From an uncultured Bacteroidales bacterium (GTDB taxonomy: Bacteria; Bacteroidota; Bacteroidia; Bacteroidales; JAGOPY01), in NCBI GenBank assembly GCA_964489545.1, contig CAZAZE010000003.1, forward strand, positions 249,527-313,526: DNA of 64,000 nucleotides, given 5' to 3'. Under the pieces are notes generated by a model. The model was not told the DNA's origin, did not search any database, and worked only from the letters and a program-made list of their open reading frames with translations. The position numbers and the translations under genes were made by a program. Positions 3,546-56,890 of this stretch are shown here, one piece after another. Every line of letters starts with the position of its first letter. Position 1 is the first letter of the stretch.

Positions 3546-4787
3546 TTATTCATACCTCAAAGCCTCGATCGGACGTATGGCGGCGGCCTTGCGTGCCGGC
3601 ACAAAGCCGGCCAGCATGCCCGACACCACCATGACGACTGTGGCGCCGATGGCCACGCGGACGTCGACCGAGGGGTTTTTAAAGAACGTATCCGCCGACT
3701 CGAACATGGGCGAGACCAGTTCCAGCAGGCCGACGCCCATCACCAGGCCGATGTAGCCGGCAAAGGCGGTGATCAGCACCGACTCCATCAGGATCAGGGT
3801 GATGACCGACCAGGGCGTGGCGCCCATGGCCTTGCGGATCCCGATCTCCTGGGTCCGCTCCTTCACCACGATCATCATGATGTTGCTCACGCCAACCACC
3901 CCGGCGATGATGGTCCCGATGCCGATGATCCAGATAAACAGCCGGATCGAAGCGAACAGCGACAGGAAGCGCTTGAACTCCTCGATGTTGTTGCGCACAT
4001 ATATTGCACGCTGGTCTTCGGGATCGAAACGATGGAGCTGTGCCAGCGTCTGGCGGATCTCTTCCGTCATGGCCTGGCTGGTCTCCACGTCAATCTCCTC
4101 GGTAACGATGCTCAGGTTAAAGATGCGGTCGCCAAAGTTGTACACCCGCTGCGCGGTGGAGATGGGTATGTAGACCCGCTGCATGTCGCGGTCGCCGCCC
4201 ACGTCGTTGAACACGCCAACCACCTTGAACGGAATCCCGCTAACCTGGATGAACTTGCCGATGGGGTTCTCGCCCTTGAATAAGCCGTCGCGCACCAGGG
4301 TACTGATGACCACCGTTTTCCGGTAATCGTTGATGTCTTCTTCGTTGATATACCGGCCTTCCACTATGTCGACTGTTTCATAATACCCGTATCCCGGGTG
4401 GCAGGCGATGATGTCCCAGTTGCCGAATTCCTTTTTGTACGAAATCGTGTTGTTCTGCCACACCATCAACCGGCTGCTGATCTTGTCGATGTTGGGAATG
4501 TCTTTTTTGACGATATCATAATCCTCGTTGGTGAACTGTATGGTGCGACCGGATTTCAGTCCTTTATACGCCACGCTGGTCTGGCCGGGATTGACCCAGA
4601 TGGTGTTGGTGGCGTCGCCTTCAAACTCTTTCCTGACGCCGTTCTCCAGTCCGTACCCGCTGCCGAGCAGGATCATGAGCATGAAGATCCCCCAGGCCAC
4701 GCTGAATCCGGTTAGGAAGGTGCGCAGCTTGTTCTTCTTCATCGTTTCGAAGATCTCCTGCCATTTATCTCCGTCAAAAATGCCCAT
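3546..4787 (-). CDS. ABC transporter permease (MacB/FtsX family)
   Basis: LRTFLTGFSVAWGI, GVSNIMMIVVKERTQEIGIRKAMGA, RPIEALR; paralog of 2139-3410. Confidence 0.92.
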   Translation of the reverse strand: MGIFDGDKWQEIFETMKKNKLRTFLTGFSVAWGIFMLMILLGSGYGLENGVRKEFEGDATNTIWVNPGQTSVAYKGLKSGRTIQFTNEDYDIVKKDIPNIDKISSRLMVWQNNTISYKKEFGNWDIIACHPGYGYYETVDIVEGRYINEEDINDYRKTVVISTLVRDGLFKGENPIGKFIQVSGIPFKVVGVFNDVGGDRDMQRVYIPISTAQRVYNFGDRIFNLSIVTEEIDVETSQAMTEEIRQTLAQLHRFDPEDQRAIYVRNNIEEFKRFLSLFASIRLFIWIIGIGTIIAGVVGVSNIMMIVVKERTQEIGIRKAMGATPWSVITLILMESVLITAFAGYIGLVMGVGLLELVSPMFESADTFFKNPSVDVRVAIGATVVMVVSGMLAGFVPARKAAAIRPIEALRYE

Positions 4788-23972: not shown

Positions 23973-24010
23973 ATCATTAAGAAGGGATAAAAATAATCAT
24001 AATCTGCTTA

Positions 24011-24058
24011 TTAATCCGGAATTTACCCGAATTATACCCGTCCGCCCGGAAAAATATT
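24011..24058 (-). promoter_or_regulatory. Bipartite GGGTAT-N15-CGGATTAA motif upstream of recJ
   Basis: Minus strand reads AATATTTTTCCGGGCGGAC-GGGTAT-N15-CGGATTAA; one of five copies in the window. Confidence 0.55.
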
Positions 24059-24064
24059 TTCCGT

Positions 24065-40622: not shown

Positions 40623-40630
40623 CCAAAGGT

Positions 40631-40677
40631 AAGATTTTTACTCCGGACCGGGTATAATTCCGGAAAATGCGGATTAA
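40631..40677 (+). promoter_or_regulatory. Bipartite GGGTAT-N14-CGGATTAA motif upstream of comF
   Basis: GGGTAT at 40650-40655, CGGATTAA at 40670-40677. Confidence 0.55.
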
Positions 40678-40696
40678 CAGGAAAAAGAATGATGAC

Positions 40697-44022: not shown

Positions 44023-44036
44023 GGCTTTTTTCCCTG

Positions 44037-44083
44037 TTTATCCGCTTTTTTTGAGAATATACCCGGTCACGGTGAAAATATTT
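44037..44083 (-). promoter_or_regulatory. Bipartite GGGTAT-N14-CGGATAAA motif upstream of the lamin-tail gene
   Basis: Plus strand shows TTTATCCG at 44037-44044 and ATACCC at 44059-44064. Confidence 0.55.
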
Positions 44084-44124
44084 TCCGGCCAAATGACTAA
44101 TTTTGCGCTTTTAAAGATGATGCG

Positions 44125-45133: not shown

Positions 45134-46060
45134 GTGAACATTTATCATCATATCGACCTCTTCCAGCCCGTCCGCAACCCTGTGGTGAGCGTGGGCACCT
45201 TCGACGGAGTGCACCGGGGGCACCAGGAGATCTTCCGGATCATGACCGAAGAAGCCAGAAATTGTGATGGAGAAACCGTTGTGGTAACTTTTTACCCGCA
45301 TCCCCGGCTGGTCATTCACCCCGACAGCCGCAACCTCAGGTTCATCAACACCCAGGAGCGCAAGTACGAGATCATCCAGCGCAGCGGGATCGACCACCTC
45401 ATTGTGATGCCGTTCACCCGGGAATTCGCCAACCTATCGGGGGCGGAATTCGTGAAACGCTTCCTGGTCGACCGGATCAGAACGCATAAACTGATCGTGG
45501 GCTACGACCATCATTTCGGTAAAGACCGCCTGGGCAGTTCCATCGAGCTGCGCGGGCTGGGAAAGATGCACGGATTCGACGTCAGGGAGGTGCCCGCATT
45601 GTCCGTCGACGGGATATCGGTCAGCTCCACCAAGGTCAGGGATGCGTTGAACCGGGGCGATATCCGCCTGGCCAACATGCTGCTCGGCTATGATTACTCG
45701 ATCTCTGGGAAAGTGGTTTACGGAAACCGCATCGGCCGCACACTGGGATTTCCCACGGCCAACATCGAGCTGGAAGACGAATACAAGCTGATCTCTGCGG
45801 TCGGCGTCTACGCGTGCAAAGTGGATCACCACGGGGTGATCTACAAAGGGATGGGCAACATCGGCTATCGCCCCACCATCGACAGGGGCAACCTGACCAT
45901 CGAGGTGAACATTTTTGATTTTGACCAGGAGATCTACGGCGACCGCATCATCATCTATTTCCTGGAGCGGATCCGCGACGAAGTGAAATTCGACAACCTG
46001 GCGGCCCTGCGCGAACAACTGATCATCGACCGGGGAAGGGTGCAGGAGATACTACGTTAG
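45134..46060 (+). CDS. ribF: Bifunctional riboflavin kinase/FAD synthetase
   Basis: GTFDGVHRGH, VGYDHHFG, SSTKVR, GRTLGFPTAN, NIGYRPT. Confidence 0.96.
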   Translation: MNIYHHIDLFQPVRNPVVSVGTFDGVHRGHQEIFRIMTEEARNCDGETVVVTFYPHPRLVIHPDSRNLRFINTQERKYEIIQRSGIDHLIVMPFTREFANLSGAEFVKRFLVDRIRTHKLIVGYDHHFGKDRLGSSIELRGLGKMHGFDVREVPALSVDGISVSSTKVRDALNRGDIRLANMLLGYDYSISGKVVYGNRIGRTLGFPTANIELEDEYKLISAVGVYACKVDHHGVIYKGMGNIGYRPTIDRGNLTIEVNIFDFDQEIYGDRIIIYFLERIRDEVKFDNLAALREQLIIDRGRVQEILR

Positions 46061-46113
46061 TTCCAGGGTTTCAGGGTTCCAGGTTCCAGAGTTCCAGGTT
46101 CCAGAGTTCCATA
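46060..46113. repeat. Tandem array of 7 units (GTTCCAGG-like, 7-8 bp), downstream arm of cassette 1
   Basis: gttccagg gtttcagg gttccag gttccaga gttccag gttccaga gttccata. Confidence 0.92.
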
Positions 46114-46120
46114 GTTATTC

Positions 46121-46510
46121 TTATTTGTATTTTCTGCCCTTTAATTCGGTCTCTTTCAAGTATTTGATTAGTTTATTTAAAGACCTGATAATTTCTAAAG
46201 ACTGTTCATTTAACTCCTGGAAACGATTGGTTTCCAAATACAACAGACGTGCTGCAATAATCAGCTGGCAGCGCAATTCTCCACAGGATCCTTTGGCAAT
46301 ATGAAGAAAATTAAGGAATTCTTTATTACCATCTCTTTCAAAACCTTCAGCGATATTAGATGCAATTGAAATAGCTGACTTTCTGACCTGATTGGTTAGT
46401 ACATAATCTTTAGAAAATGGGCCACGGCTAGTCTCATGGTAAATTTGTGTCGTTAAATCAATGGATTTCTGCCACACCTCCATTTCTTCGAATCGTTTAA
46501 ACGTGCTCAT
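46121..46510 (-). CDS. Four helix bundle protein (TIGR02436/PF05635 IVS-protein family)
   Basis: FEEMEVWQKS, LTNQVRKSAISIASNIAEGFER, FLHIAKGSCGELRCQL; visibly AT-rich. Confidence 0.92.
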   Translation of the reverse strand: MSTFKRFEEMEVWQKSIDLTTQIYHETSRGPFSKDYVLTNQVRKSAISIASNIAEGFERDGNKEFLNFLHIAKGSCGELRCQLIIAARLLYLETNRFQELNEQSLEIIRSLNKLIKYLKETELKGRKYK

Positions 46511-46601
46511 AGTGATAAATTATTTTTATCAGTTAATTGCATTTTGACTCAAAAAATACCCGGTTGTTAATAAAAATACCCAGCTTGCTCAGAAAGAAAA
46601 C

Positions 46602-46680
46602 TCTGGAACTATGGAACTGTGGAACTGTGGAACCCTGAAACCCTGGAACCCTGGAACCTGGAACCCTGGAACCCTGGAAC
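46602..46680. repeat. Tandem array of 10 units (CCTGGAAC-like), upstream arm of cassette 1
   Basis: tctggaac tatggaac tgtggaac tgtggaac cctgaaac cctggaac cctggaac ctggaac cctggaac cctggaac; reverse complement of the 46060 array units. Confidence 0.92.
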
Positions 46681-46682
46681 TC

Positions 46683-47150
46683 TTACCTCTTCCTGACAAT
46701 CAGTCCGACCTGCATGATCCCGGCGAGATCGGCCTGCGACATGGCGCTGGAAACTTCGATGCGGCAGATGCCGGGTTCCGTGAAACGAAAGCCCTCCCAG
46801 GCCAGGAAATTCAAATCCCAGAGTGCGCCCATTCCGTTGCCCAGGTTTTTGCCTTCGGCGTCCTTCACCGGGATCCGGAAGCTGTTGTTCCGCGTTTCGC
46901 CCGAAGGAGTTTCCATGTTGAAATAAATGTCCAGGTTCCGGTAAGGGATATCGGTATGGTGGCGTATGGCCACAAGGATGTCGTATTCCGTGTCGATATC
47001 CTGGATTTCCACGTCAAACACTTTGACATCGAAGCGGTTCCACACCAGCCCCCGGGTATCGAGGTGTTCTTCGTAGATCTTTCCCGGGCTGCAGGCGCCC
47101 AGGATCAGCAGGAAAGGTATGATCAGGGATATCGTTCTCATCGTCTTCAT
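46683..47150 (-). CDS. gldH: Gliding motility lipoprotein GldH
   Basis: Lipobox LGAC; IAIRH-like LVAIRHHTDIPYRNL, GNGMGALWD, YRI-like CRIEVSSAM, GIMQVGLIV. Confidence 0.78.
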   Translation of the reverse strand: MKTMRTISLIIPFLLILGACSPGKIYEEHLDTRGLVWNRFDVKVFDVEIQDIDTEYDILVAIRHHTDIPYRNLDIYFNMETPSGETRNNSFRIPVKDAEGKNLGNGMGALWDLNFLAWEGFRFTEPGICRIEVSSAMSQADLAGIMQVGLIVRKR

Positions 47151-47254
47151 CAACAAAAATAATTCAAATCGGTTTAAAAACATGTTCAAGGATTATCCTG
47201 TCACCGGTCATTCTTCCGTTAATCATCCTTATTTTCGCCCTGAAATTGATTTCA

Positions 47255-47878
47255 ATGCCGGCGAAAAAGTATTACGTGGTTTGGAGCGGGCTCAGGCCGG
47301 GGGTGTATGAGACCTGGAAGGAGTGCGAGGCACAGATCCGGGGCGTGGACGGCGCCGTGTACAAATCATTTCCCGACCGGGAAAGCGCCGTTAAGGCCCT
47401 GAATTCGGACTGGAGGGAATATATCGGGAAGAAGAAGGAGGAGCCGGCGAAGAAGGTGCAGCGCGACCGGCAGAGCATACGGGAAAGTATCAGCGTCGAC
47501 GCCGCCTGCAGCGGGAACCCGGGCGTTCTGGAATACCGGGGCGTGGAAACCGCTACCGGCCGGCAGCTGTTCCACCAGGGCCCTTTTCCACTGGGAACTG
47601 TGAACATCGGCGAATTTCTGGCCATCGTGCACGCGCTGGCCTACCTTCAGAAATACGGCAGCAACCTGCCGGTCTATTCCGATTCACGCACTGCCATCAA
47701 ATGGACCCGGGATAAAGCCATCAAGACCAATCTACCGAGAAACAGCAAAACGGAAGCTCTTTTTGACCTGGTCGACCGGGCGATCAACTGGCTGAAAATC
47801 CATGATTATCCCAATCAAATCTTAAAATGGGAAACGGACCGGTGGGGAGAAATCCCGGCGGATTTCGGGAGGAAGTGA
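47255..47878 (+). CDS. rnhA: Ribonuclease HI with an N-terminal hybrid-binding (viroplasmin-like) domain
   Basis: KKYYVVWSG...PGVYETW, SVDAACSGNPG, NIGEFLAIVHAL, YSDS, KWETDRWGEIPADFGRK. Confidence 0.93.
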   Translation: MPAKKYYVVWSGLRPGVYETWKECEAQIRGVDGAVYKSFPDRESAVKALNSDWREYIGKKKEEPAKKVQRDRQSIRESISVDAACSGNPGVLEYRGVETATGRQLFHQGPFPLGTVNIGEFLAIVHALAYLQKYGSNLPVYSDSRTAIKWTRDKAIKTNLPRNSKTEALFDLVDRAINWLKIHDYPNQILKWETDRWGEIPADFGRK

Positions 47879-47879
47879 A

Positions 47880-49235
47880 CTACCCTGTCGCCAGCCTGAC
47901 AGAGATATCAATTTTTATCATGAAATGCAGGCCGATGCCGAGGACGATCCTCAGGAACAGCAGCAGGGCCAGCATCATGGCCAGGTAGCCTATATTGATC
48001 TTCCTGACTTTTTTCACCTTCAGCAGGTTCAGCCTGGGTTTTACCCTGGGGTTGAAGAAGGGGGGAATGACGAGGAACATCATGCTGAAGAACATCAGGG
48101 TTTCGTAAGGATATTCAAATCCCCGGGGCAAGCGGAGCAGCAGCATGATCACGGTTCCGAGGAACCAGGGGATGAGCATCTGCAGTAAGAAAAACGCGGT
48201 CCGGTTTTCCGGCTTGATCCGGTTGAGGGAGTCGGAGGTTTCCAGGATCTTTTCCGCGGAATAATAGCCAATCAGGCCCAGGACAAATAATGAGATGATG
48301 GAGAACATGAATTTGAAGGCCGTATTCATGTACATCCATGCCGCCACATAGCCGAAGCCTTCAGAGGTGATGATGCCGCTGGGCAGCGCGCCGAAGAAAT
48401 GATTGAACAGGTGGAACGAGGTCCAGAGCACGAACAGCTTTTGCAATCCGATCAGCCGGCGGTGCTTGAATACCACCCTGAGGAGAAAAAGACCCAGGAA
48501 AAGGCAGAAAAACGGAGGGATGCCCGTTACGAGCAGGATATTGAACCGGTTCCAGAGCGTAGAATGATCGTTGAATTTCAGGTCATAGTAGTATAAGGTC
48601 GAATCCAGTCCGTAAACGGATGCGACCAGCATACTGGTGAGCCAGTAGAACAGGTAGACGAGGACATAAGTGGCCACGAAGATCAGCAGCGAGTTCACCA
48701 TAATGGTGAGGCTTCGGTAGAATTCGCTGCGCTGGGAGAACAGCGGTATTCTTTTGGCCCGGGCCTCTTCGCTTTCGGCGGAAATGGTGAAAAGTTTCTG
48801 CCCCAGGGAGCGGCCGGATTCCATTTTCCGGTATTCCTTCTGGTGTTTCCGGCGCATCTTGTTCTTGAAGCGTTCCTCCCGGCGGATTTCCCGGCGCTGG
48901 GCTCTTAGTTTGAAGTAATACCGGATGGACTCCGCAATGGATTTTTTTCGCCGGGGGTATGTTTCCTGCCCGCCATCAATGGGAAACTCAACCGGTTTTG
49001 TTTTTTCAGGCGAAGATGGAGTCTGCTTACTGATGGGGATTCCTTCCTGTGGATCAGGCTTGGTCTCGATGGAATGCTCCCTGTGTTCCTGGGGTTTTTC
49101 GTCCGGAAAGTGGATTCCGGGGAACGACGACCGGTGGGTTTTGTATTTATTGCGGCCCAGCAGCCGGTCCCAGAAACTCCTGCGGTGTTTGCGGCGCTTC
49201 GATGAACTGCGGTGGTGTTGGTCGGATCCGGCCAT
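47880..49235 (-). CDS. Hypothetical multi-pass membrane protein with a long basic/charged N-terminal region
   Basis: About 160 aa Arg/Lys/Glu-rich N-terminus, then about 7 hydrophobic segments; no family recognised. Confidence 0.6.
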   Translation of the reverse strand: MAGSDQHHRSSSKRRKHRRSFWDRLLGRNKYKTHRSSFPGIHFPDEKPQEHREHSIETKPDPQEGIPISKQTPSSPEKTKPVEFPIDGGQETYPRRKKSIAESIRYYFKLRAQRREIRREERFKNKMRRKHQKEYRKMESGRSLGQKLFTISAESEEARAKRIPLFSQRSEFYRSLTIMVNSLLIFVATYVLVYLFYWLTSMLVASVYGLDSTLYYYDLKFNDHSTLWNRFNILLVTGIPPFFCLFLGLFLLRVVFKHRRLIGLQKLFVLWTSFHLFNHFFGALPSGIITSEGFGYVAAWMYMNTAFKFMFSIISLFVLGLIGYYSAEKILETSDSLNRIKPENRTAFFLLQMLIPWFLGTVIMLLLRLPRGFEYPYETLMFFSMMFLVIPPFFNPRVKPRLNLLKVKKVRKINIGYLAMMLALLLFLRIVLGIGLHFMIKIDISVRLATG

Positions 49236-49310
49236 ATGATTGTTCTTCGCTATGGTTGATTTAAATTGTTTTACTTTAGCCGCAAACTTCTATCATTATA
49301 CTGGCGAAAA

Positions 49311-49901
49311 ATGAAAAAGTTTATCGAAGAGATCGGTAAAAGTATAAAAAAATACAAGCTGCATGTTCTCAAGGACGTCCTCATCTTTGTGATCATCACG
49401 CTGACCATTCATTATTCTTACAGATACTGGGCCAGGAAACAATACTGGCCCGTGACCTCTGTAATGAACGCATCACATGAATTCATGTCCCAAAAAGTGT
49501 ATGACCAGAGTACATGGCTGATCGATAATTTGCTGGGTATTCCCATAACAGTGGACGAGACGGGGCGTGTGATCTATTTTGAAAACAACGGATTTATCGG
49601 TATCAACCACAGTTGTTCAGGGCTAAAGCCCATCCTGCAGTTTGTCTTGCTGATGCTGCTTTTCCCCGGGCCCTGGAGGCATAAGGCCTGGTTCATCCCA
49701 ATGGGTGTAATGCTGGTTCATTTAACCAATCTATTCAGGATCTCGGGCCTGGCTGTCGTGACGATCACCGTGCCGCAATACTGGGATTTCGCACACGACA
49801 ATATCTTCCGGCCGTTTTTTTACGTGGTGATCTTTTTACTGTGGGTATGGTGGGTGGAGCGATTCAGGAGCAAAGCTCCACGCCACCTTAACGAAGGGTG
49901 A
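49311..49901 (+). CDS. Exosortase/archaeosortase family protein
   Basis: INHSCSGLK (catalytic Cys), TNLFRI (Arg), AHD (His); multi-TM. Confidence 0.82.
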   Translation: MKKFIEEIGKSIKKYKLHVLKDVLIFVIITLTIHYSYRYWARKQYWPVTSVMNASHEFMSQKVYDQSTWLIDNLLGIPITVDETGRVIYFENNGFIGINHSCSGLKPILQFVLLMLLFPGPWRHKAWFIPMGVMLVHLTNLFRISGLAVVTITVPQYWDFAHDNIFRPFFYVVIFLLWVWWVERFRSKAPRHLNEG

Positions 49902-50814
49902 AGGTAGTATGCCCGATGATCGTGTTCTCACAGAAAATATCAACATGATATAAGCCCGCCATCATCTCCTGGTTCGTATATTCTTTCTTCCAATAAAGGC
50001 AAAGATCCATGGACTGGTTTTCATAATTGATCGTCTCCATGATGGAGTATTGCAGCAATTCGCCCTGGTATTCGAAGGCATAATCGTCGAGCCGGCCTTT
50101 GACCAGGATTTCCTGGTCAGGACGGGCGATGCGGATGTACACGTCTTTTCTGCCCGGCGCTGCGATCTCATTCTCACCGATGGTGAAGCATATTTTGACC
50201 TGGTCGGTCCGCTGCACTTTGTCTGTTTCCACTTCCTTATCCCCGCCGCTGCGTGAGCGGATGCCCGTGGCTTTCATGTTGACCGCTCTCAGCTGGGCGG
50301 CAATCTCCACCTTGCCCGATAGAACCTCCCGGTCTTTCTCGATTTCCTCTTTTTCTTTTTTCAGATCTTTCAGATCCTTCCGGATGGCCACGTTTTCCTC
50401 AGTAAGTGCGGCGTTGACCCGGTAGAGGGAATCCATCTGCCGGACGTACCCCTGGGCGATCACCTGGAGCTGGCCCAGTTTCTTCTTCACTTTGTAATAC
50501 TCCCATTCCGTATCGAGCAGCCGGCGGATCTCTTTGGCATTGGCCTGAATCAGGCTGTCCTTGACCATCAGCGTATCCGACAGCCTGCCGTATTCGGTTT
50601 TCACCTTTTCATGCTCCACCAGGAGCGAATCCAGTTCCAGCTGCAATTCGGTCCGTTGTTGTTCTTTCTCGGCCAGGAGGCCTTTCAGGTTGCTCCGGGT
50701 TTGCATCAGGATGATGATGAGCGCGATCACCACGATGGCCAGAACCGCCGCGATGGCGGTCAGGGTGGTGTTTGAGCGGCCGCGTGCCTTGTTATCCGAT
50801 GAGGTTTGTTCCAT
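49888..50814 (-). CDS. Membrane-anchored coiled-coil protein, hypothetical
   Basis: One N-terminal TM, long heptad-rich coiled coil, C-terminal beta domain (VKICFTI, YHVDIF). Confidence 0.65.
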   Translation of the reverse strand: MEQTSSDNKARGRSNTTLTAIAAVLAIVVIALIIILMQTRSNLKGLLAEKEQQRTELQLELDSLLVEHEKVKTEYGRLSDTLMVKDSLIQANAKEIRRLLDTEWEYYKVKKKLGQLQVIAQGYVRQMDSLYRVNAALTEENVAIRKDLKDLKKEKEEIEKDREVLSGKVEIAAQLRAVNMKATGIRSRSGGDKEVETDKVQRTDQVKICFTIGENEIAAPGRKDVYIRIARPDQEILVKGRLDDYAFEYQGELLQYSIMETINYENQSMDLCLYWKKEYTNQEMMAGLYHVDIFCENTIIGHTTFTLR

Positions 50815-50910
50815 AAACCGGTGATTTACTGCAAAAATAGTAAAAAATGCAACCGGATTCCAGTGAATCGGTTGCAAGGGACGAATTGAATAATCGAAAT
50901 GGAGCGGTTC

Positions 50911-52083
50911 TTATTTCAGATGATCTGGTACTATTTCCCGCAACCTCTCCATAGCCATCTCCAGCGTTTGCCGCGGACAGCCGATGTTCACGCGCTGAAA
51001 GCCTTCACCTCCCGGGCCGAAAACCGTGCCATCCACAAAACCCAGTCCGGCTTTATGGATGAGCAGGCGCTTCAGCTCATCTGCCGGCAGATTCCATTCC
51101 CGGAAGTCGAGCCAGAGCATATAGGTGGCTTCCGCCGGACTGACCCTGATCCCAGGGATGTTACGGGAAATGTAATCCATCACGAACCGGACGTTCCCCT
51201 TCAGGTACTCCATCAGTTCTTCAAGCCATGGGTCGCCGTAGCGATACGCCGCCTCCGCAGCAGTGATCCCGAAGATATTTGCGCTCAGGTGCACCCTTTC
51301 TTCTGCAGTTTTGAACCGTTCGCGGAGTTTTTCATCGGAGATGATGATGGACGAGGAATACAGACCGGCCAGGTTGAAGGTCTTGCTCGGGGCGATGCAG
51401 GTAATGGTGTTCCCGGCGATCTCTTCCGACAGCGTGGCGAGCGGGATATGCCGGTGCGGATCCAGCACCAGGTCGCAGTGAATTTCATCGCTCACGATCA
51501 GCACGCCATGCTCTAAGCCCTTCGCTCCGAGCCACTCCAGTTCTTCACGGCTCCAGCAGCGGCTGACGGGATTATGCGGGTTGCAGAGGATCATCATTTT
51601 CGCCCCGTCGCGCATCTTCCGCTCCAGGTCTTCAAAGTCGATGGAATACACCCCGTCGCGCTCCGCCAGCTGGTTCAGGACCAGCTCACGCCCGTTCTTT
51701 TCGACGCAGGTGAAAAACGGGAAATACACCGGCGGCTGGATGATGATCCGGTCGCCGGGCTCGGTGAAGGCCTGCACGATCACGTTCAATCCCGTCACCA
51801 CCCCGGGACTGAACAGGATCCAGTCTTTTTCAATGGCCCAGCCGTGGCGGCGTTTTTGCCAGCCGATGACCGATTCGTAATAGCTTTCCGGGATGATGGA
51901 GTACCCGAACACGGGATGCTCTGCGCGCTGGCGGATGGCTTCTGCAACAAAGGGCGGCACCGCAAAATCCATGTCCGCCACCCACATCGGGATCACATCC
52001 TCCCGGCCGAAATAAGTTTTGCGCAGGTCGAACTTGACGCAATTCGTCCCGGCCCGTTTTATGGGTTGATCAAAGTTGAACAT
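50911..52083 (-). CDS. patB: PatB/MalY family PLP-dependent C-S lyase/aminotransferase
   Basis: True start MFNFDQP at 52083; IPMWVADMDF, LCNPHNP, SDEIHCD, APSKTFNLAG, ATYMLWLD, RVNIGCP. Confidence 0.88.
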   Translation of the reverse strand: MFNFDQPIKRAGTNCVKFDLRKTYFGREDVIPMWVADMDFAVPPFVAEAIRQRAEHPVFGYSIIPESYYESVIGWQKRRHGWAIEKDWILFSPGVVTGLNVIVQAFTEPGDRIIIQPPVYFPFFTCVEKNGRELVLNQLAERDGVYSIDFEDLERKMRDGAKMMILCNPHNPVSRCWSREELEWLGAKGLEHGVLIVSDEIHCDLVLDPHRHIPLATLSEEIAGNTITCIAPSKTFNLAGLYSSSIIISDEKLRERFKTAEERVHLSANIFGITAAEAAYRYGDPWLEELMEYLKGNVRFVMDYISRNIPGIRVSPAEATYMLWLDFREWNLPADELKRLLIHKAGLGFVDGTVFGPGGEGFQRVNIGCPRQTLEMAMERLREIVPDHLK

Positions 52084-52093
52084 ACTGAAAAGA

Positions 52094-52213
52094 GACTGTA
52101 GGACGGTAGGACGGTAGGACTGTAAGACTGTAGGACGGTAAGACTGTAGGACGGTAAGACTGTAGGACTGTAGGACGGTAAGACTGTAGGACTGTAAGAC
52201 TGCTGGACTGCAG
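52094..52213. repeat. Tandem array of 15 x 8 bp (GACKGTAR), upstream arm of cassette 2
   Basis: Units gactgtag, gacggtag, gactgtaa and gacggtaa; the last two are degenerate (gactgctg, gactgcag). Confidence 0.95.
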
Positions 52214-52288
52214 CACTTCAAGGAAAGATATTAACAGACCGGGTATTTTTTGGAATTTACCGGATAAACCGGTATAAAATGTCTTTTT

Positions 52289-52660
52289 ATGAAGTTCACT
52301 AATCATGAAGAATTAGAAGTCTATAAACTGGCTTTTGAATCAGCCATGCGAATTTTTCATCATTCAATAAAATTTCCAAAGGAGGAAAAGTATTCGCTCA
52401 CCGATCAAATGAGGAGGTCTTCCCGATCCGTTTGTGCGAATGTTGCAGAAGCTTTTTACAGAAGAAAATACCCTAAAAACTTTTCCTCCCATTTGTCTGA
52501 TGCAATTGCTGAGGCTGCTGAAACGCGCGTATGGTTAAACTTTTCTTATTCCTGTCACTATTTATCTGAGGACGAAACAAACAATCTTCTTGAAACCTAC
52601 ACCAAAATAATTGGGAAACTGATAGTTATGTATAATCAATCAGACAAATGGCAGATATAA
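52289..52660 (+). CDS. Four helix bundle protein (TIGR02436/PF05635 family)
   Basis: HEELEVYKLA, FPKEEKYSLTDQMRRSSRSVCANVAEA, AETRVWL; visibly AT-rich. Confidence 0.92.
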   Translation: MKFTNHEELEVYKLAFESAMRIFHHSIKFPKEEKYSLTDQMRRSSRSVCANVAEAFYRRKYPKNFSSHLSDAIAEAAETRVWLNFSYSCHYLSEDETNNLLETYTKIIGKLIVMYNQSDKWQI

Positions 52661-52663
52661 ATC

Positions 52664-52719
52664 CTACCGTCCTACAGTCTTACCGTCCTACAGTCCTACT
52701 GTCCTACAGTCCTACTGTC
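52664..52719. repeat. Tandem array of 7 x 8 bp (YTACHGTC), downstream arm of cassette 2
   Basis: ctaccgtc ctacagtc ttaccgtc ctacagtc ctactgtc ctacagtc ctactgtc; five units are exact reverse complements of units in the 52094 array and two differ by one base. Confidence 0.95.
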
Positions 52720-54466
52720 AATGCGCCGGCCCGATCACCTTCAGCTTGTCGCCGGTCTGTTCGACGATGCCGCGCAGGAACCACTCCGGGTAGCCGGGCT
52801 GTTCCACCTTGGGCGCGTGGTACTTGTAGCCTTCGGGGACTTCCGTCGCCGTCTTGATGTTCCCGTCCATGAAACGGGTGAACAGGTGCCCGTAGAACTT
52901 CTTCCAGTCCATGACGGCCGTGTTCCCTGCCGAAACGGAATACTGGGTGAGGTATTCGACGGCTTTCTGCGGGTCGGTCTTGTAGAACTCCTGTGCGGCC
53001 GCATCGATCTGTTTCACGGTCTCGATGAAGTTGGCCTCGTCGGTCTGCTGTTTGACGTGGATTTCCGGGTGGATGTAGGAATAGCGGGTATAGGCCAGGT
53101 TGGAGATCTGGTTAAAGACCCAAAACGCGGCGTCGTCGACGAACTCCATCATGGAGCCATAGCCCGTGGCCATTTTATCCGGCGCCTGGGTCATGGAGCA
53201 GTACATGGGCATAAGGAGGCTGCTGGAAGCGTCGTCGACGGCGAACCAGAAGATGCCGCCGATCGGGTCGGGCAGCCAGGAGCGTGACTGGGCCAGGAAC
53301 CAGAAGCCGGTCTGCTGGGTGGCGGTGGCGCGTTCGTTGCAATAGGTCACGCCGTCGACCTTCCAGGTGAGCGGGCGCCAGCGGTAGGGCTTGCCGAACG
53401 GGCCGGCCCCTTCGTCTTTCGACATATCCAGCGGCGTTTCTTCCAGGTGGTCGCGCATGAAGTTCATCACTTCATGCAGGTCAAGGAGGTGGTCGGGCCT
53501 GATCCAGAGCGGCATGCGGTTGGTGGCGTAGCCGTTGGCGTTCGGGCTGCCGTCGGCGAAGGTCGCCTCGTGTTTGATATGGCCGCTGGCGTAATCAAAG
53601 TATTGTTCCATCTCCTTGTTGATGGACTTGAAGAACGACCATACCCGGATCTCGCAGAAGCGGGCTGCGCTGAAATCCACCGGGGCATATGTGTCGGAGA
53701 AGCTGAACTCGGCGTCTTTGCCGTTGAAATAGCCTTTTTCACGGGCGAAGGTAATGACGTCGTCGGCATAGAAACACTCCACTTCCGGGGCCATCAGCTT
53801 GCTGCGCTGGCTGAACTTAACGGCTTTCTTCTTGTCGCCCACCGGGAAGGTCGTGATGCGCGCCTGGTTGGCGTGGGCGGAAACGTAACCGTCGGGCACT
53901 TTCAGGGCCACCCATACGGCGCCTTTCTGGCCTTCGCCTTTTCCGATCATTTCAAAGATCCATACCTCGTTCTTGTCGGCGATGGAGAACGATTCGCCCG
54001 AGCTGGCGTATCCGTAGTCATTCATGAGCTCAGTGATCACGACCATCGCTTCGCGGGCCGTTTTGGCGCGCTGCAGGGCGATGTACATCAGGCTGCCGTA
54101 GTCCATGATGGCGCCCGGCTGGCTGCCCAGCTCCTGGCGCCCGCCATAGGTCGTTTCCCCGATGGCCACCTGGTGCTCGTTCATATTGCCGATCACGTTG
54201 TAGGTCTCGGCGGCCTGCGGGATCTGGCCAAGGAATTTGCCCGTGTCCCACTCATAGACGTCCAGCATGCTGCCGGCGGGCCATTTCTGGGCGGGCCAGT
54301 GGTACAGCTCGCCGTATAAAGTGTGCGAATCTGCGGCGTAGGTGATCATCACCGAACCGTCTTTCGAAGCGCCTTTGGTCACAAGAAAATTGGTGCAGGC
54401 AAAAGTTTGCATTCCTGCCCAGGAAGTCAAAAGAAAGGCTAAAGCCAGGGCTAGTCTTTTTTTCAT
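52718..54466 (-). CDS. Peptidase family C69 dipeptidase
   Basis: Signal peptide then CTNFLV (N-terminal nucleophile Cys), GNMNEHQVAIGETT, GESFSIAD, HANQARI. Confidence 0.9.
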   Translation of the reverse strand: MKKRLALALAFLLTSWAGMQTFACTNFLVTKGASKDGSVMITYAADSHTLYGELYHWPAQKWPAGSMLDVYEWDTGKFLGQIPQAAETYNVIGNMNEHQVAIGETTYGGRQELGSQPGAIMDYGSLMYIALQRAKTAREAMVVITELMNDYGYASSGESFSIADKNEVWIFEMIGKGEGQKGAVWVALKVPDGYVSAHANQARITTFPVGDKKKAVKFSQRSKLMAPEVECFYADDVITFAREKGYFNGKDAEFSFSDTYAPVDFSAARFCEIRVWSFFKSINKEMEQYFDYASGHIKHEATFADGSPNANGYATNRMPLWIRPDHLLDLHEVMNFMRDHLEETPLDMSKDEGAGPFGKPYRWRPLTWKVDGVTYCNERATATQQTGFWFLAQSRSWLPDPIGGIFWFAVDDASSSLLMPMYCSMTQAPDKMATGYGSMMEFVDDAAFWVFNQISNLAYTRYSYIHPEIHVKQQTDEANFIETVKQIDAAAQEFYKTDPQKAVEYLTQYSVSAGNTAVMDWKKFYGHLFTRFMDGNIKTATEVPEGYKYHAPKVEQPGYPEWFLRGIVEQTGDKLKVIGPAH

Positions 54467-54589: not shown

Positions 54590-56200
54590 TTAGAAATCGT
54601 AATAAATATTCCTCAGCCCGGTTTTCAGGCCGAAATACAGGTAATGCATTTGTTTGTCCCACTGGGCATTATTTTCATTGCGGATGGTGACCCCGGCTTC
54701 GAGGCGCATATTGGTCCTGCGGTTCAGCAGGTAGGCCACGTTGAGGTCGCCGATGAACAGCTTGGTTTTGAGGCCCTGCCCGATTTCGTTCCCGTATTCG
54801 CTGATGCGCTGATCATAAGGGATGAAGATGTCTTTTCCGTAATCCAGTCCGGCGGTATCGATCCCGTACATCGCGAAGTTCAGTTTGAAGCTGATCATCC
54901 AGTTGTTCCGGGTATAGGACGACATCAGGATAAATTCCCGGAAATTGGCTCCTAAGGGGTGGGCCAGCGGTTGATTGTAGTGCCCGTAGGCTTCGGTGGT
55001 GTTCGCGTAAGAGTAAGTGTACGGCCGTGCCTGGTTGAACTCAAAACGGGCGTTCAAAGCCGGTACATCGAAGAGGTTCCATCCGGCGACGCCCAGCTGG
55101 TAGCCGAATTTGTTGCCCCACCATCCGGTATTCGCCGTGACCTCATCCAGTTTGAATTCATCCAGGAATACCTGGCCGTAAACATTGAGGAATCTGTTGA
55201 TCCGCAGGTTGAACGTAGCCCCCATTACGCTGTTGTCAGGCGATCCGAAGGATGACTCTATCGGCCGCATCAGGAAAATGACGGGATTCAGGTACTGGAA
55301 TTCGAAGCCGCGATAACCGGCCGAGTCGGCATTTTCCCATACGATCGCATCGAAAAGGCCGATGGTCAGCCTTTTCCACAGCATAATCTGCAGGTAGTGC
55401 ATGGTCGACCACTTGCGGTCGTTGCCAAAACCGACCGTTGAAGTCACGCTGCGGTCGATGAACTGATTGTACAATACCGTGTATTTGACTTTTTTGAAAT
55501 TGGCGGTTAAAGCGACGTAGGGATAATTGAAAGAGGCATCCGACAGGATCATCGAGCGGTAGCCGTCGCCGATGAAGTTTTTGCCATATCCCAGGGTCAT
55601 ATTGATGTATTTCACCGGAGTATAGGTCAGATAACCGCTGCTGTACAAATAATCATATCCTTCTTCCTTAAAGGGTTTTGTGCCGCCCTGTCCGGGGACC
55701 ACCCCGGTCTGCCGGACCATGGAGTCGGGCCAGGAGGCGAACACCGCCTGGTTCTCGTACAGTTCCGCGTTAAAAAAGACCTTGTTCAGCAGCGCTCCCG
55801 TTACCGTAAAGCCCCGCGTGTTGGTCCACGCGAACTTTGGTTCCTTCAGATCATATCCTCCCGAAAAATTAAACACGGGATCCGCGGTGATCCAGAAATC
55901 CTTTGTCCGGTAACGGATCAGGCTTTCATTGAATATTTTCCGGTACACCCAGGTGTTTTTACGTCCTTCCTTCCGGAACACCGTGGGGTAGATCACGCTG
56001 TCGATGTGGTAAGCGCTGTCCAGTTCCTGCATCAAAACGGGTTTCATGGACGACAGAAACGAAGCATTTTCCTGCTGGTACTTTTGGGTGAGCAGGTTGT
56101 AGAAATGGTTGTCCAGGGGGATGAACTGGGCAACACTAATGAATGGGAGGATTGCCAGCGCAATGATTCCCAGGCGAATATTAGGGAATTTAATTTTCAA
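54590..56200 (-). CDS. Outer-membrane protein resembling RemB/Wzi-type barrels
   Basis: Signal peptide; LGYGKNFIGDGYRSMILSD, YLNPVIF, YGQVFLDEF, YGHYNQPLAHPLGANFRE; C-terminal aromatic residue. Confidence 0.7.
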   Translation of the reverse strand: MKIKFPNIRLGIIALAILPFISVAQFIPLDNHFYNLLTQKYQQENASFLSSMKPVLMQELDSAYHIDSVIYPTVFRKEGRKNTWVYRKIFNESLIRYRTKDFWITADPVFNFSGGYDLKEPKFAWTNTRGFTVTGALLNKVFFNAELYENQAVFASWPDSMVRQTGVVPGQGGTKPFKEEGYDYLYSSGYLTYTPVKYINMTLGYGKNFIGDGYRSMILSDASFNYPYVALTANFKKVKYTVLYNQFIDRSVTSTVGFGNDRKWSTMHYLQIMLWKRLTIGLFDAIVWENADSAGYRGFEFQYLNPVIFLMRPIESSFGSPDNSVMGATFNLRINRFLNVYGQVFLDEFKLDEVTANTGWWGNKFGYQLGVAGWNLFDVPALNARFEFNQARPYTYSYANTTEAYGHYNQPLAHPLGANFREFILMSSYTRNNWMISFKLNFAMYGIDTAGLDYGKDIFIPYDQRISEYGNEIGQGLKTKLFIGDLNVAYLLNRRTNMRLEAGVTIRNENNAQWDKQMHYLYFGLKTGLRNIYYDF

Positions 56201-56302
56201 CCGAGATTGATGAATTAATTAAATACAAGTATAATACCTTTGATGGACCTTTCACAAAGAATACTGGAAAATATCTCTATTTTCGTGGCAAAATAAATTT
56301 GA

Positions 56303-56890
56303 ATGCTTAAGTCTTACAACCAACGTATACGGAAAATTTATTATGGCCCTTATGGTTTTGTGTTTGATATTGTTCTTTTTGCGGTTATTACATACACATT
56401 TCATGTATTATGGTGGGATTTCGCCAGTTTTATTAAATCATTCGCTATAGTCTATAACACAGCGGACTGGCTGGCCAGACAGGTATATCTTTCGAGCCTT
56501 TGGATAAATCGGAATATCCTTGGGATTTCAATTTCAACAGAAGAGCCTAATTTGATGCGATTCAGTAATGGGGGCTTTGTTGCGGTGGTCGAAAGTTGTT
56601 CAGGTTTGAAGCAGTTCTACCAGATTCTTGTGCTTTTTCTGCTCTTCCCGGGCCCATGGAAGCATAAGTTATGGTTCATTCCGATGAGTATTTTGATTAT
56701 GCATTTTGTGAACATAATGCGCATTGTCATACTTTCGGTAATGGCCATTTGGAAACCCGAATACTGGGACTTTGTGCACGCCTGGATCCTCCGACCCGGT
56801 TTCTACGTCGTGATTTTCCTGCTTTGGGTATGGTGGGTCGAAAAATTCACACGACGAAGATCTGCTTCTACGCAGCCTGCAGGATCATGA
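56303..56890 (+). CDS. Exosortase/archaeosortase family protein (paralog of 49311)
   Basis: VESCSGLK, VNIMRI, FVHAW; shared FPGPWKHKLWFIP motif. Confidence 0.82.
   Translation: MLKSYNQRIRKIYYGPYGFVFDIVLFAVITYTFHVLWWDFASFIKSFAIVYNTADWLARQVYLSSLWINRNILGISISTEEPNLMRFSNGGFVAVVESCSGLKQFYQILVLFLLFPGPWKHKLWFIPMSILIMHFVNIMRIVILSVMAIWKPEYWDFVHAWILRPGFYVVIFLLWVWWVEKFTRRRSASTQPAGS

Follow-up and report, generated by a model that had tools for sequence, protein, structure and literature searches.

The leader motif of two repeat-flanked four-helix-bundle gene cassettes in an uncultured Bacteroidales bacterium shares its core with host genes and may be part of a promoter

Why should two gene cassettes with different repeats and divergent proteins carry almost the same short sequence ahead of their start codons? 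The question arises from a 64,000-nt stretch of a genome assembly from an uncultured Bacteroidales bacterium (contig CAZAZE010000003.1, positions 249,527 to 313,526; hereafter the window, with positions counted from its first letter), which holds two small genes of the PF05635/TIGR02436 four-helix-bundle family, each enclosed by two mutually inverted arrays of 8-nt tandem repeats. A first-pass annotation, made from the letters alone, had pointed to a near-identical leader of 23 or 24 nt lying about 36-39 nt before each ATG, and had taken it to mark the cassettes as one system with a common cis element. We find that the two cassettes are related and have homologous leaders, and that the core of the motif is found ahead of unrelated genes too, as a signal of host type. 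On balance, we regard the motif as probably the upstream part of a promoter-plus-5'-leader module, of a host class distinct from the canonical Bacteroidota TAnnTTTG box.

Both leaders are present as described. That of cassette 1, TATTAACAACCGGGTATTTTTTG, runs from 46572 to 46550 on the minus strand, that of cassette 2, TATTAACAGACCGGGTATTTTTTG, from 52229 to 52252 on the plus strand, and a single inserted G separates them. Each consists of a block A, TATTAACA (46572-46565 in cassette 1, 52229-52236 in cassette 2), a spacer (ACC and GACC, respectively), a block B, GGGTAT (46561-46556 and 52241-52246), and a tail, TTTTTG (46555-46550 and 52247-52252), the 23-mer originally singled out being blocks A and B plus this T-run tail. 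The distance from the end of the motif to the ATG measured 39 nt in cassette 1 (46549-46511; ATG at 46510, minus strand) and 36 nt in cassette 2 (52253-52288; ATG at 52289, plus strand), in agreement with the annotation, which was also right that the repeats differ and that the proteins, at 31% identity, have diverged. The pattern TATTAACA(G)ACCGGGTATTTTTTG matched exactly twice in the 64 kb and never in 100 dinucleotide-preserving shuffles (0 expected). When the whole cassettes were aligned pairwise, the motif stood out as an isolated island of identity that ended abruptly after 23 nt, with unalignable leader DNA on either side. Nearer the gene, each leader has a third block, block C: CTGATAAA at 46532-46525 (minus strand) in cassette 1, and CCGGATAAAC at 52260-52269 (plus strand), 16 nt past GGGTAT, in cassette 2. 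Cassette 1 also carries a second copy of GGGTATTTT (46573-46581), 20 nt upstream of the first and directly before block A.

Relatives of the cassettes, drawn from other metagenomes and metagenome-assembled genomes, keep this arrangement. We compared 14 distinct cassettes: the two window copies, one locus from a genome scan (L011), and closer homologues traced to their contigs. The relatives form a c1-type set (L011, L117, L118, L119, L128 and L131; 57-72% identical to the cassette-1 protein) and a c2-type set (L112, L113, L114, L115, L123 and L126; 61-95% identical to the cassette-2 protein). Taxon labels exist only for L011 and the homologues P0005, P0032 and P0155, all of them Bacteroidales, and the 14 cassettes are probably of Bacteroidales origin. 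All 14 keep the repeat unit of their own subfamily, and three blocks are conserved in their leaders, which measure 80-100 nt: block A, (G/T)TAT(T/C)AACA, which L118 and L119 have in degenerate form; block B, (G/A)GGTAT(A/T), 3-5 nt past block A; and a GATAAA-like block C, 16-17 nt past block B in c2-type and 25-26 nt past it in c1-type copies. The ATG lies 37-47 nt past GGTAT in every one of the 14, whereas the distance from array to block A varies from about 4 to 37 nt, so the motif is tied to the start of the gene and not to the arrays. To this extent the proposal of a common cis element stands: the element is genuine, is not due to chance and keeps the same distance from the ATG across 14 cassettes.

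Outside the blocks the leader is variable among the relatives, spacer and tail included, with tails reading TTTTTTG, ATAATTG, ATTCATTG, AAATCATTG and AATGGGATTG. Exact CCGGGTATTTTTTG is common to cassette 1, cassette 2 and L011, while L112 has CTGGGTATTTTTTG and L128 one extra T. The T-run after GGGTA counts six T in cassette 1 (46550-46555), cassette 2 (52247-52252), L011 and L112, and seven in L128. A run of five would give a perfect canonical TAnnTTTG box, and slippage in this run could therefore tune promoter strength; variation in its length was not seen in the four sequencing runs examined.

Conservation in the leader appears to be a matter of primary sequence, as expected for recognition of DNA by a protein, since RNAalifold gave 0 conserved pairs in either the c1-type or the c2-type leader alignment, and Rfam gave no match at E<=1 around the cassettes and none at the gathering threshold anywhere in the window. 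A search around the host sites described below at E<=5 returned three chance-level matches only (E 0.58-1.5). An idea that blocks A and C pair with each other was dropped when consensus RNA folding gave no pairs.

We scanned 185,579 genomes for a 19-nt core of the motif and obtained 31 matches, of which one (L011) is a real cassette; about half of the remainder fall in a shared coding stretch and the others are scattered. The two types of shared stretch that we read are the reverse strand of S9-peptidase-like genes encoding ...KKYPVV..., the open reading frame (ORF) having been inspected for L004 only. With one cassette among 31 matches, the 19-nt core alone is too short to serve as a database probe, and we set it aside for that purpose. 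The check proposed in the annotation, whether matches concentrate at four-helix-bundle genes, thus came out mixed: the full 23-mer occurs only at cassettes, and most matches of the 19-nt core lie elsewhere.

Within the window, the core is not confined to the cassettes. ACCGGGTAT(A/T)(A/T)T, followed after 16-17 nt by CGGAT(A/T)AAC, also precedes three ordinary genes, those encoding a comF-like phosphoribosyltransferase (GACCGGGTATAAT, 13 nt, GCGGATTAAC; 40627-40686, plus strand), an 869-aa LTD-domain protein (GGAAAATATTTTCA...GACCGGGTATATT...GCGGATAAAC; 44029-44087, minus strand) and RecJ (GGAAAATATTTTTCC...GGACGGGTATAAT...CCGGATTAAT; 24002-24063, minus strand). ACCGGGTAT has 4 matches in the window against 0.32 expected, GGGTAT-N14-19-GAT[AT]AA has 4 against 0.03, and TAWWWT-N8-22-YKGATWAA has 5 against 0.34; every core match, whether at a cassette or before comF-like, LTD or recJ, lies just 5' of a start codon and in the sense direction. 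The three host sites are alike over about 60 nt, comprising a GGAAAATATTTTCC-like palindrome, GACCGGGTATAAT, 12-13 nt, CGGAT(A/T)AAC, AGG, an A-run and the ATG, and they resemble the cassette-2 leader along its whole length. In a 540-kb search space, an nhmmer profile built from these three sites alone recovered the leader of cassette 2 (E=0.004) and, less strongly, the relatives L112 (E=0.08) and L113 (E=0.14). Only block A, TATTAACA, and the T-run tail are specific to the cassettes; the spacer-plus-box (G)ACCGGGTAT, identical in both window cassettes, reads as the consensus of this genome's module. Hence the leader does not mark the cassettes as one dedicated system, and the earlier proposal is right only in part; since the core also fronts three ordinary genes, a promoter of host type is the likeliest reading, in preference to a signal that only the cassettes use.

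If so, the four-helix-bundle gene of each cassette would have an internal module that drives it, with the 23/24-mer as the upstream two-thirds, and would be expressed from within an intervening-sequence-like hairpin element. Block B, GGGTAT(A/T)(A/T)(A/T) with its invariant T-A-T, would be a -10/-7-type box; the A/T-rich block A (consensus GTTATTAACA, a near-palindrome) would be an upstream or operator element specific to the cassettes; and block C would fall at about +5 to +15 of a 5' untranslated region of some 30 nt. Alternatively, block C itself could be the -10 and block B a -35-like element at a fixed 16-17 nt. At that distance past block B, c2-type and host copies have the A/T hexamer GATWAA, and c1-type copies have AATTAA or TCTAAT. 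The simplest assumption is that block B is the -10, although block C also fits the strict 16-17-nt spacing; that RNA polymerase starts at the module, and which box serves as its -10, we infer. Both window leaders would be held to, or pulled toward, the host consensus GACCGGGTAT, which would explain how identical letters come to stand in two cassettes whose repeats and proteins differ so much.

Position and expression are consistent with a promoter here. The Bacteroidota sigma-A promoter is said to consist of TTTG at -33 and TAnnTTTG at -7, as reportedly set out by Bayley in 2000. The module resembles it in having an A/T-rich box that starts with TA and lies 37-48 nt before the ATG, where this genome's canonical boxes sit, and in that the window copies end in TTTTTTG. 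In the module, the box reads TATAAT, TATATT or TATTTT after an invariant GGG, and in the cassettes it begins at -45/-48 from the start codon. The canonical consensus, described for Flavobacterium (PMC9723704), has 14 perfect TAnnTTTG boxes in the window, ahead of 13 other genes and 9-68 nt before their starts, 11 of the 14 within 21-50 nt. Cassette 2 is oriented away from both of its neighbours, so its sense strand needs an internal promoter of its own. Both cassettes are covered by RNA contigs in two anaerobic-digester metatranscriptomes (X4 and X5), in which coverage is zero over the unexpressed LTD gene and the LTD intergenic region; the cassette signal is therefore RNA and not DNA carry-over, and the cassettes are transcribed.

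Several observations weigh against a promoter at the motif. The canonical -7 box is absent, the window copies reading TATTTTTTG, that is, TA-N4-TTG and not TA-N3-TTG, with one base too many in between; the box of relatives and host copies is TATAAT, TATATT or TATAAA, with no TTG. The GGG before the box, invariant in the module, is a further departure from the sigma-A consensus, as is the absence of the -33 TTTG, with no TTG 19-21 nt upstream of the box in either cassette. The cassette leaders have no conserved sigma-70 -35 element either. The position of block A, 3-5 nt upstream of GGTAT and 6-7 nt before TAT, matches no standard promoter geometry, and block C of the c1-type lies 9 nt farther from block B than in c2-type and host copies. 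The X4 and X5 contigs are unstranded and broken at the arrays, so that start site and strand are unreadable from them, and they span the motif itself, so some transcripts pass through it; at cassette 1 these would be read-through from gldH, and at cassette 2 they may come from the dipeptidase gene, reading through in antisense. Finally, the host copies known so far number three, and all of them come from this single 64-kb window.

We also considered known promoter and operator classes. A sigma-70 promoter (TTGACA-17-TATAAT, hexamers 16-18 nt apart and conserved between copies) was rejected: cassette 1 alone has a weak candidate, TTAACA-18-CAAAAT (9/12), whose downstream hexamer is not conserved in cassette 2 or the relatives. 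A promoter of the extracytoplasmic-function sigma-factor type, GGAAA-N17-19-GTAT, fits the host copies, but the spacing in the cassettes is 3 nt shorter, and we rejected it as a common explanation. A reading of TGATAAA...TTTATCA in c1-type leaders as a Fur box was rejected, since the spacing of its halves varies (2, 2, 5 and 14 nt). A more ambitious proposal, which we think improbable, is that GACCGGGTAT(A/T)(A/T)T-N12-13-CGGAT(A/T)AAC represents, in a probable Bacteroidales lineage, an unrecognised promoter class that is served by an alternative sigma factor or by a regulator of its own and that ties the cassettes to a DNA uptake/processing regulon (comF-like, recJ, LTD). Were it true, the cell would turn on nucleic-acid-binding Avd-like proteins at the same time as its DNA-handling functions, and the subfamily-specific arrays might be sites that the cassette proteins recognise. 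Metatranscriptome contigs show recJ to be co-transcribed with its upstream gene.

The palindromic character of block A raises the question of whether the conserved sequence is instead an operator, with block A (consensus GTTATTAAC, a 9-bp palindrome) binding a dimeric regulator over the core promoter and the cassettes being co-regulated. The palindrome GTTATTAAC is perfect in 5 of the 14 cassettes, conservation lies in the sequence without RNA structure, and block A is not shared with the host genes, which carry a different palindrome, GGAAAATATTTTCC, at the same position. Yet the halves of the block A palindrome are unequal, AAC being nearly invariant and GT kept in only about 9-10 of 13 copies; no candidate regulator gene adjoins either cassette; and a site with two-fold symmetry is unlikely to be read by a four-helix-bundle protein that forms pentamers. 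We consider an operator rather unlikely as the primary explanation; it is compatible with a promoter, to which it would then add a layer specific to the cassettes. The palindrome GGAAAATATTTTCC, exact or nearly so, stands upstream of the GGGTAT box at 44071-44084 (the LTD/asd divergent region) and at 24045-24059 (before recJ), and a split version lies at about 56255-56275 in the 56200-56303 intergenic region; this palindrome is possibly a regulator site.

The surroundings of the motif suggest a further explanation, namely an element of the 5' untranslated region that acts in the RNA, through processing, stability, translation control or protein binding, with a transcript started upstream and trimmed at the stem formed by the arrays. 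The arrays are predicted to pair into terminal stems, about 70 bp in cassette 1 and roughly 50 bp in cassette 2, that enclose the gene as a loop (z = -8 and -10), and RNase III cuts the Coxiella 23S rRNA intervening sequence at the first heptamer before a homologous ORF (PMC4990558). The RNA contigs across the motif and the sense orientation of c1-type relatives inside the suf operon point the same way, as does a hairpin that block C forms beside the ATG in c1-type copies; in cassette 1 it is a 7-bp hairpin at 46513-46532, made with TTTATCA (46519-46513), which we read from the sequence and which also appears in the predicted RNA fold. L011, L128 and the c2-type copies, however, do not keep this hairpin; the leader alignments and Rfam searches gave no sign of RNA structure; and the core also occurs at host genes, in normal promoter regions between genes, of which two are divergent. 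Action at the level of RNA thus seems to us improbable.

The cassette-1 gene (46121-46510, minus strand) encodes 129 aa and the cassette-2 gene (52289-52660, plus strand) 123 aa; both proteins match the full PF05635 domain (121.7 and 102.6 bits; cut-off 33.8) and TIGR02436 (123.6 and 90.7 bits; cut-off 24), and an exact look-up of the cassette-1 protein returned no identical record. The repeat units are AGTTCCAG/AACCCTGG in cassette 1 and GACTGTAG/TCCTACAG in cassette 2. The arrays of cassette 1, built of GTTCCAGG-type units, comprise an upstream array of about 10 copies of the 8-nt unit, CCAGGGTT on the gene strand (46599-46680, minus strand), and an inverted downstream array (46059-46116, minus strand) with arms of 40 nt that are 95% complementary. 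Cassette 2 has about 14.6 copies of GACTGTAG/GACGGTAG upstream (52094-52210, plus strand) and an inverted downstream array (52662-52719, plus strand; arms 58 nt, 90-92% complementary) that overlaps the stop codon of the C69 dipeptidase gene. Taken over both cassettes, the inverted flanks have arms of 40-61 nt and 84-95% complementarity. Cassette 1 lies between ribF and gldH, cassette 2 between an aminotransferase gene and the dipeptidase gene. In four public sequencing runs, words from the arrays were about 5-90 times as deep as the flanking single-copy DNA, varying by array and run (about 950-1180 against 13-29 in run X2), and many different sequences continued out of the arrays; hence the same repeat units border many other loci in these communities. 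The 150 nt 5' of the aminotransferase gene (50911-52083), which are the cassette-2 array and leader, hold no canonical -7 box, and this gene may rely on read-through from the dipeptidase gene (52718-54466) along the strand antisense to cassette 2. A pair of paralogous membrane proteins of the exosortase family (EpsH-like) is encoded at 49311-49901 and 56303-56890, 6.4 kb apart.

The sites that the cassettes occupy differ among relatives. The c1-type relatives (L011, L117-L122, L128-L132) are all found in the suf operon, in its sense direction, with sufS on one side and sufE on the other, and the c2-type relatives (L113, L115, L123-L127) near glmS, sodB or an S41 peptidase gene, neither of which is the setting of the window copies; this suggests that cassettes move or get shuffled over time. 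Could the motif then be a recombination or mobility site, or a patch left by recent gene conversion, with no function in expression? Besides the differing sites, the foreign look of the cassettes would fit, their ORFs having a GC content of 36% against 53% for the window and 57-59% for ribF and the dipeptidase gene, as would the finding that the spacer and tail of cassette 2 are nearer to those of cassette 1 than to those of its own relatives with 61-80% identity. Against this, the motif is one-sided and variable in its distance from the arrays; its conservation over 14 loci from many samples excludes a recent patch; the identity between the window copies breaks off abruptly; the core is shared with non-mobile host genes; and none of the 17 surrounding genes that we scanned (38.9-58 kb) has a reverse transcriptase, integrase or transposase domain. 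We therefore regard such an origin as very improbable. A candidate empty cassette-1 site, seen in one DNA run as a contig joint from 46100 to 46604, was discarded, as its anchor is only 25 nt and lies inside the repeat.

The architecture extends well beyond close relatives. Each cassette protein returned more than 4,000 homologues, and we fetched 80 metagenome loci (L032-L111), with relatives 34-57% identical to the cassette-1 protein, for a survey of arrays. A tandem array of period 6-9 lay within 150 nt upstream of the gene at 47 of 75 loci, compared with 6 of 53 control windows farther off, and within 200 nt downstream at 56 of 71, compared with 6 of 52. Most of these arrays, of 7-8-nt units, are inverted, and the unit differs at nearly every locus; the motif and its core occur in none of the 80. 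A homologue on a Nostoc plasmid (L133, NZ_CP117771.1, 156391-156798) has the same layout, with inverted purine-rich flanks of the GAGAAGT type, and searches of virus contigs and phage records found no relatives of the cassettes. We conclude that four-helix-bundle cassettes flanked by repeats, in the manner of intervening sequences, are spread through Bacteroidota and cyanobacteria. A literature search for a general association between PF05635 and tandem arrays found no paper, only the Coxiella work and reviews of diversity-generating retroelements. In L011, a gene-less inverted pair of heptamer arrays (2173-2280; AGTTCAA x4 and ACTTTGA x4 around a 47-nt loop) is flanked by a membrane-protein gene and dxs, and is possibly a cassette derivative that lacks the ORF; a solo array, AAGTTCA x8, lies at 4052-4110.

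Among known systems, the closest is the intervening sequence found in the 23S rRNA of Coxiella and Leptospira, in which an S23p ORF sits in a stem-loop excised by RNase III and which in Coxiella has 3-4 tandem heptamers, GACAGAT, directly before the ORF (PMC4990558). The window cassettes share with it the PF05635 ORF family, the long-stem loop formed by inverted flanks and tandem repeats of 7-8 nt beside the ORF. Unlike it, they lie between protein-coding genes and not in helix 25 or 45 of 23S rRNA (Rfam, rRNA families included, gave nothing at threshold in the window, so there is no rRNA); their arrays are much longer, with 7-15 units per side; and they have a leader of 80-90 nt with a promoter-like module, which elements borne in rRNA neither need nor have. 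A second comparison is with Avd of diversity-generating retroelements, which belongs to a related four-helix-bundle fold family and gives weak bAvd and NF033474 matches. The cassette genes are not the Avd component of such a retroelement, because none of the 17 neighbouring genes scanned (38.9-58 kb) is a reverse transcriptase gene and their scores against the Avd equivalog NF033474 (18.9 and 26.9 bits) are far below its cut-off of 80. Repetitive extragenic palindromic (REP) sequences, bacterial interspersed mosaic elements (BIME) and hairpins like miniature inverted-repeat transposable elements (MITE) are similar in placing inverted repeats in intergenic DNA at many sites, and the gene-less pair in L011 recalls them; here, in contrast, the arms are subfamily-specific tandem arrays of short units that enclose a conserved gene.

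The architecture is more striking than the 23-mer and deserves more attention: standalone PF05635 genes typically sit in hairpin cassettes of short tandem repeats that resemble 23S rRNA intervening sequences, yet lie outside rRNA. One lineage, probably within Bacteroidales, has equipped its cassettes with a conserved leader whose core is common to host genes. If the module is a promoter, selfish-looking elements would be expressed on the host's terms, and the module would open up to study a second promoter class, distinct from TAnnTTTG, in digester bacteria that have not been cultured. Should the connection with comF and recJ prove true across the genome, the PF05635 family would gain its first functional lead outside diversity-generating retroelements.

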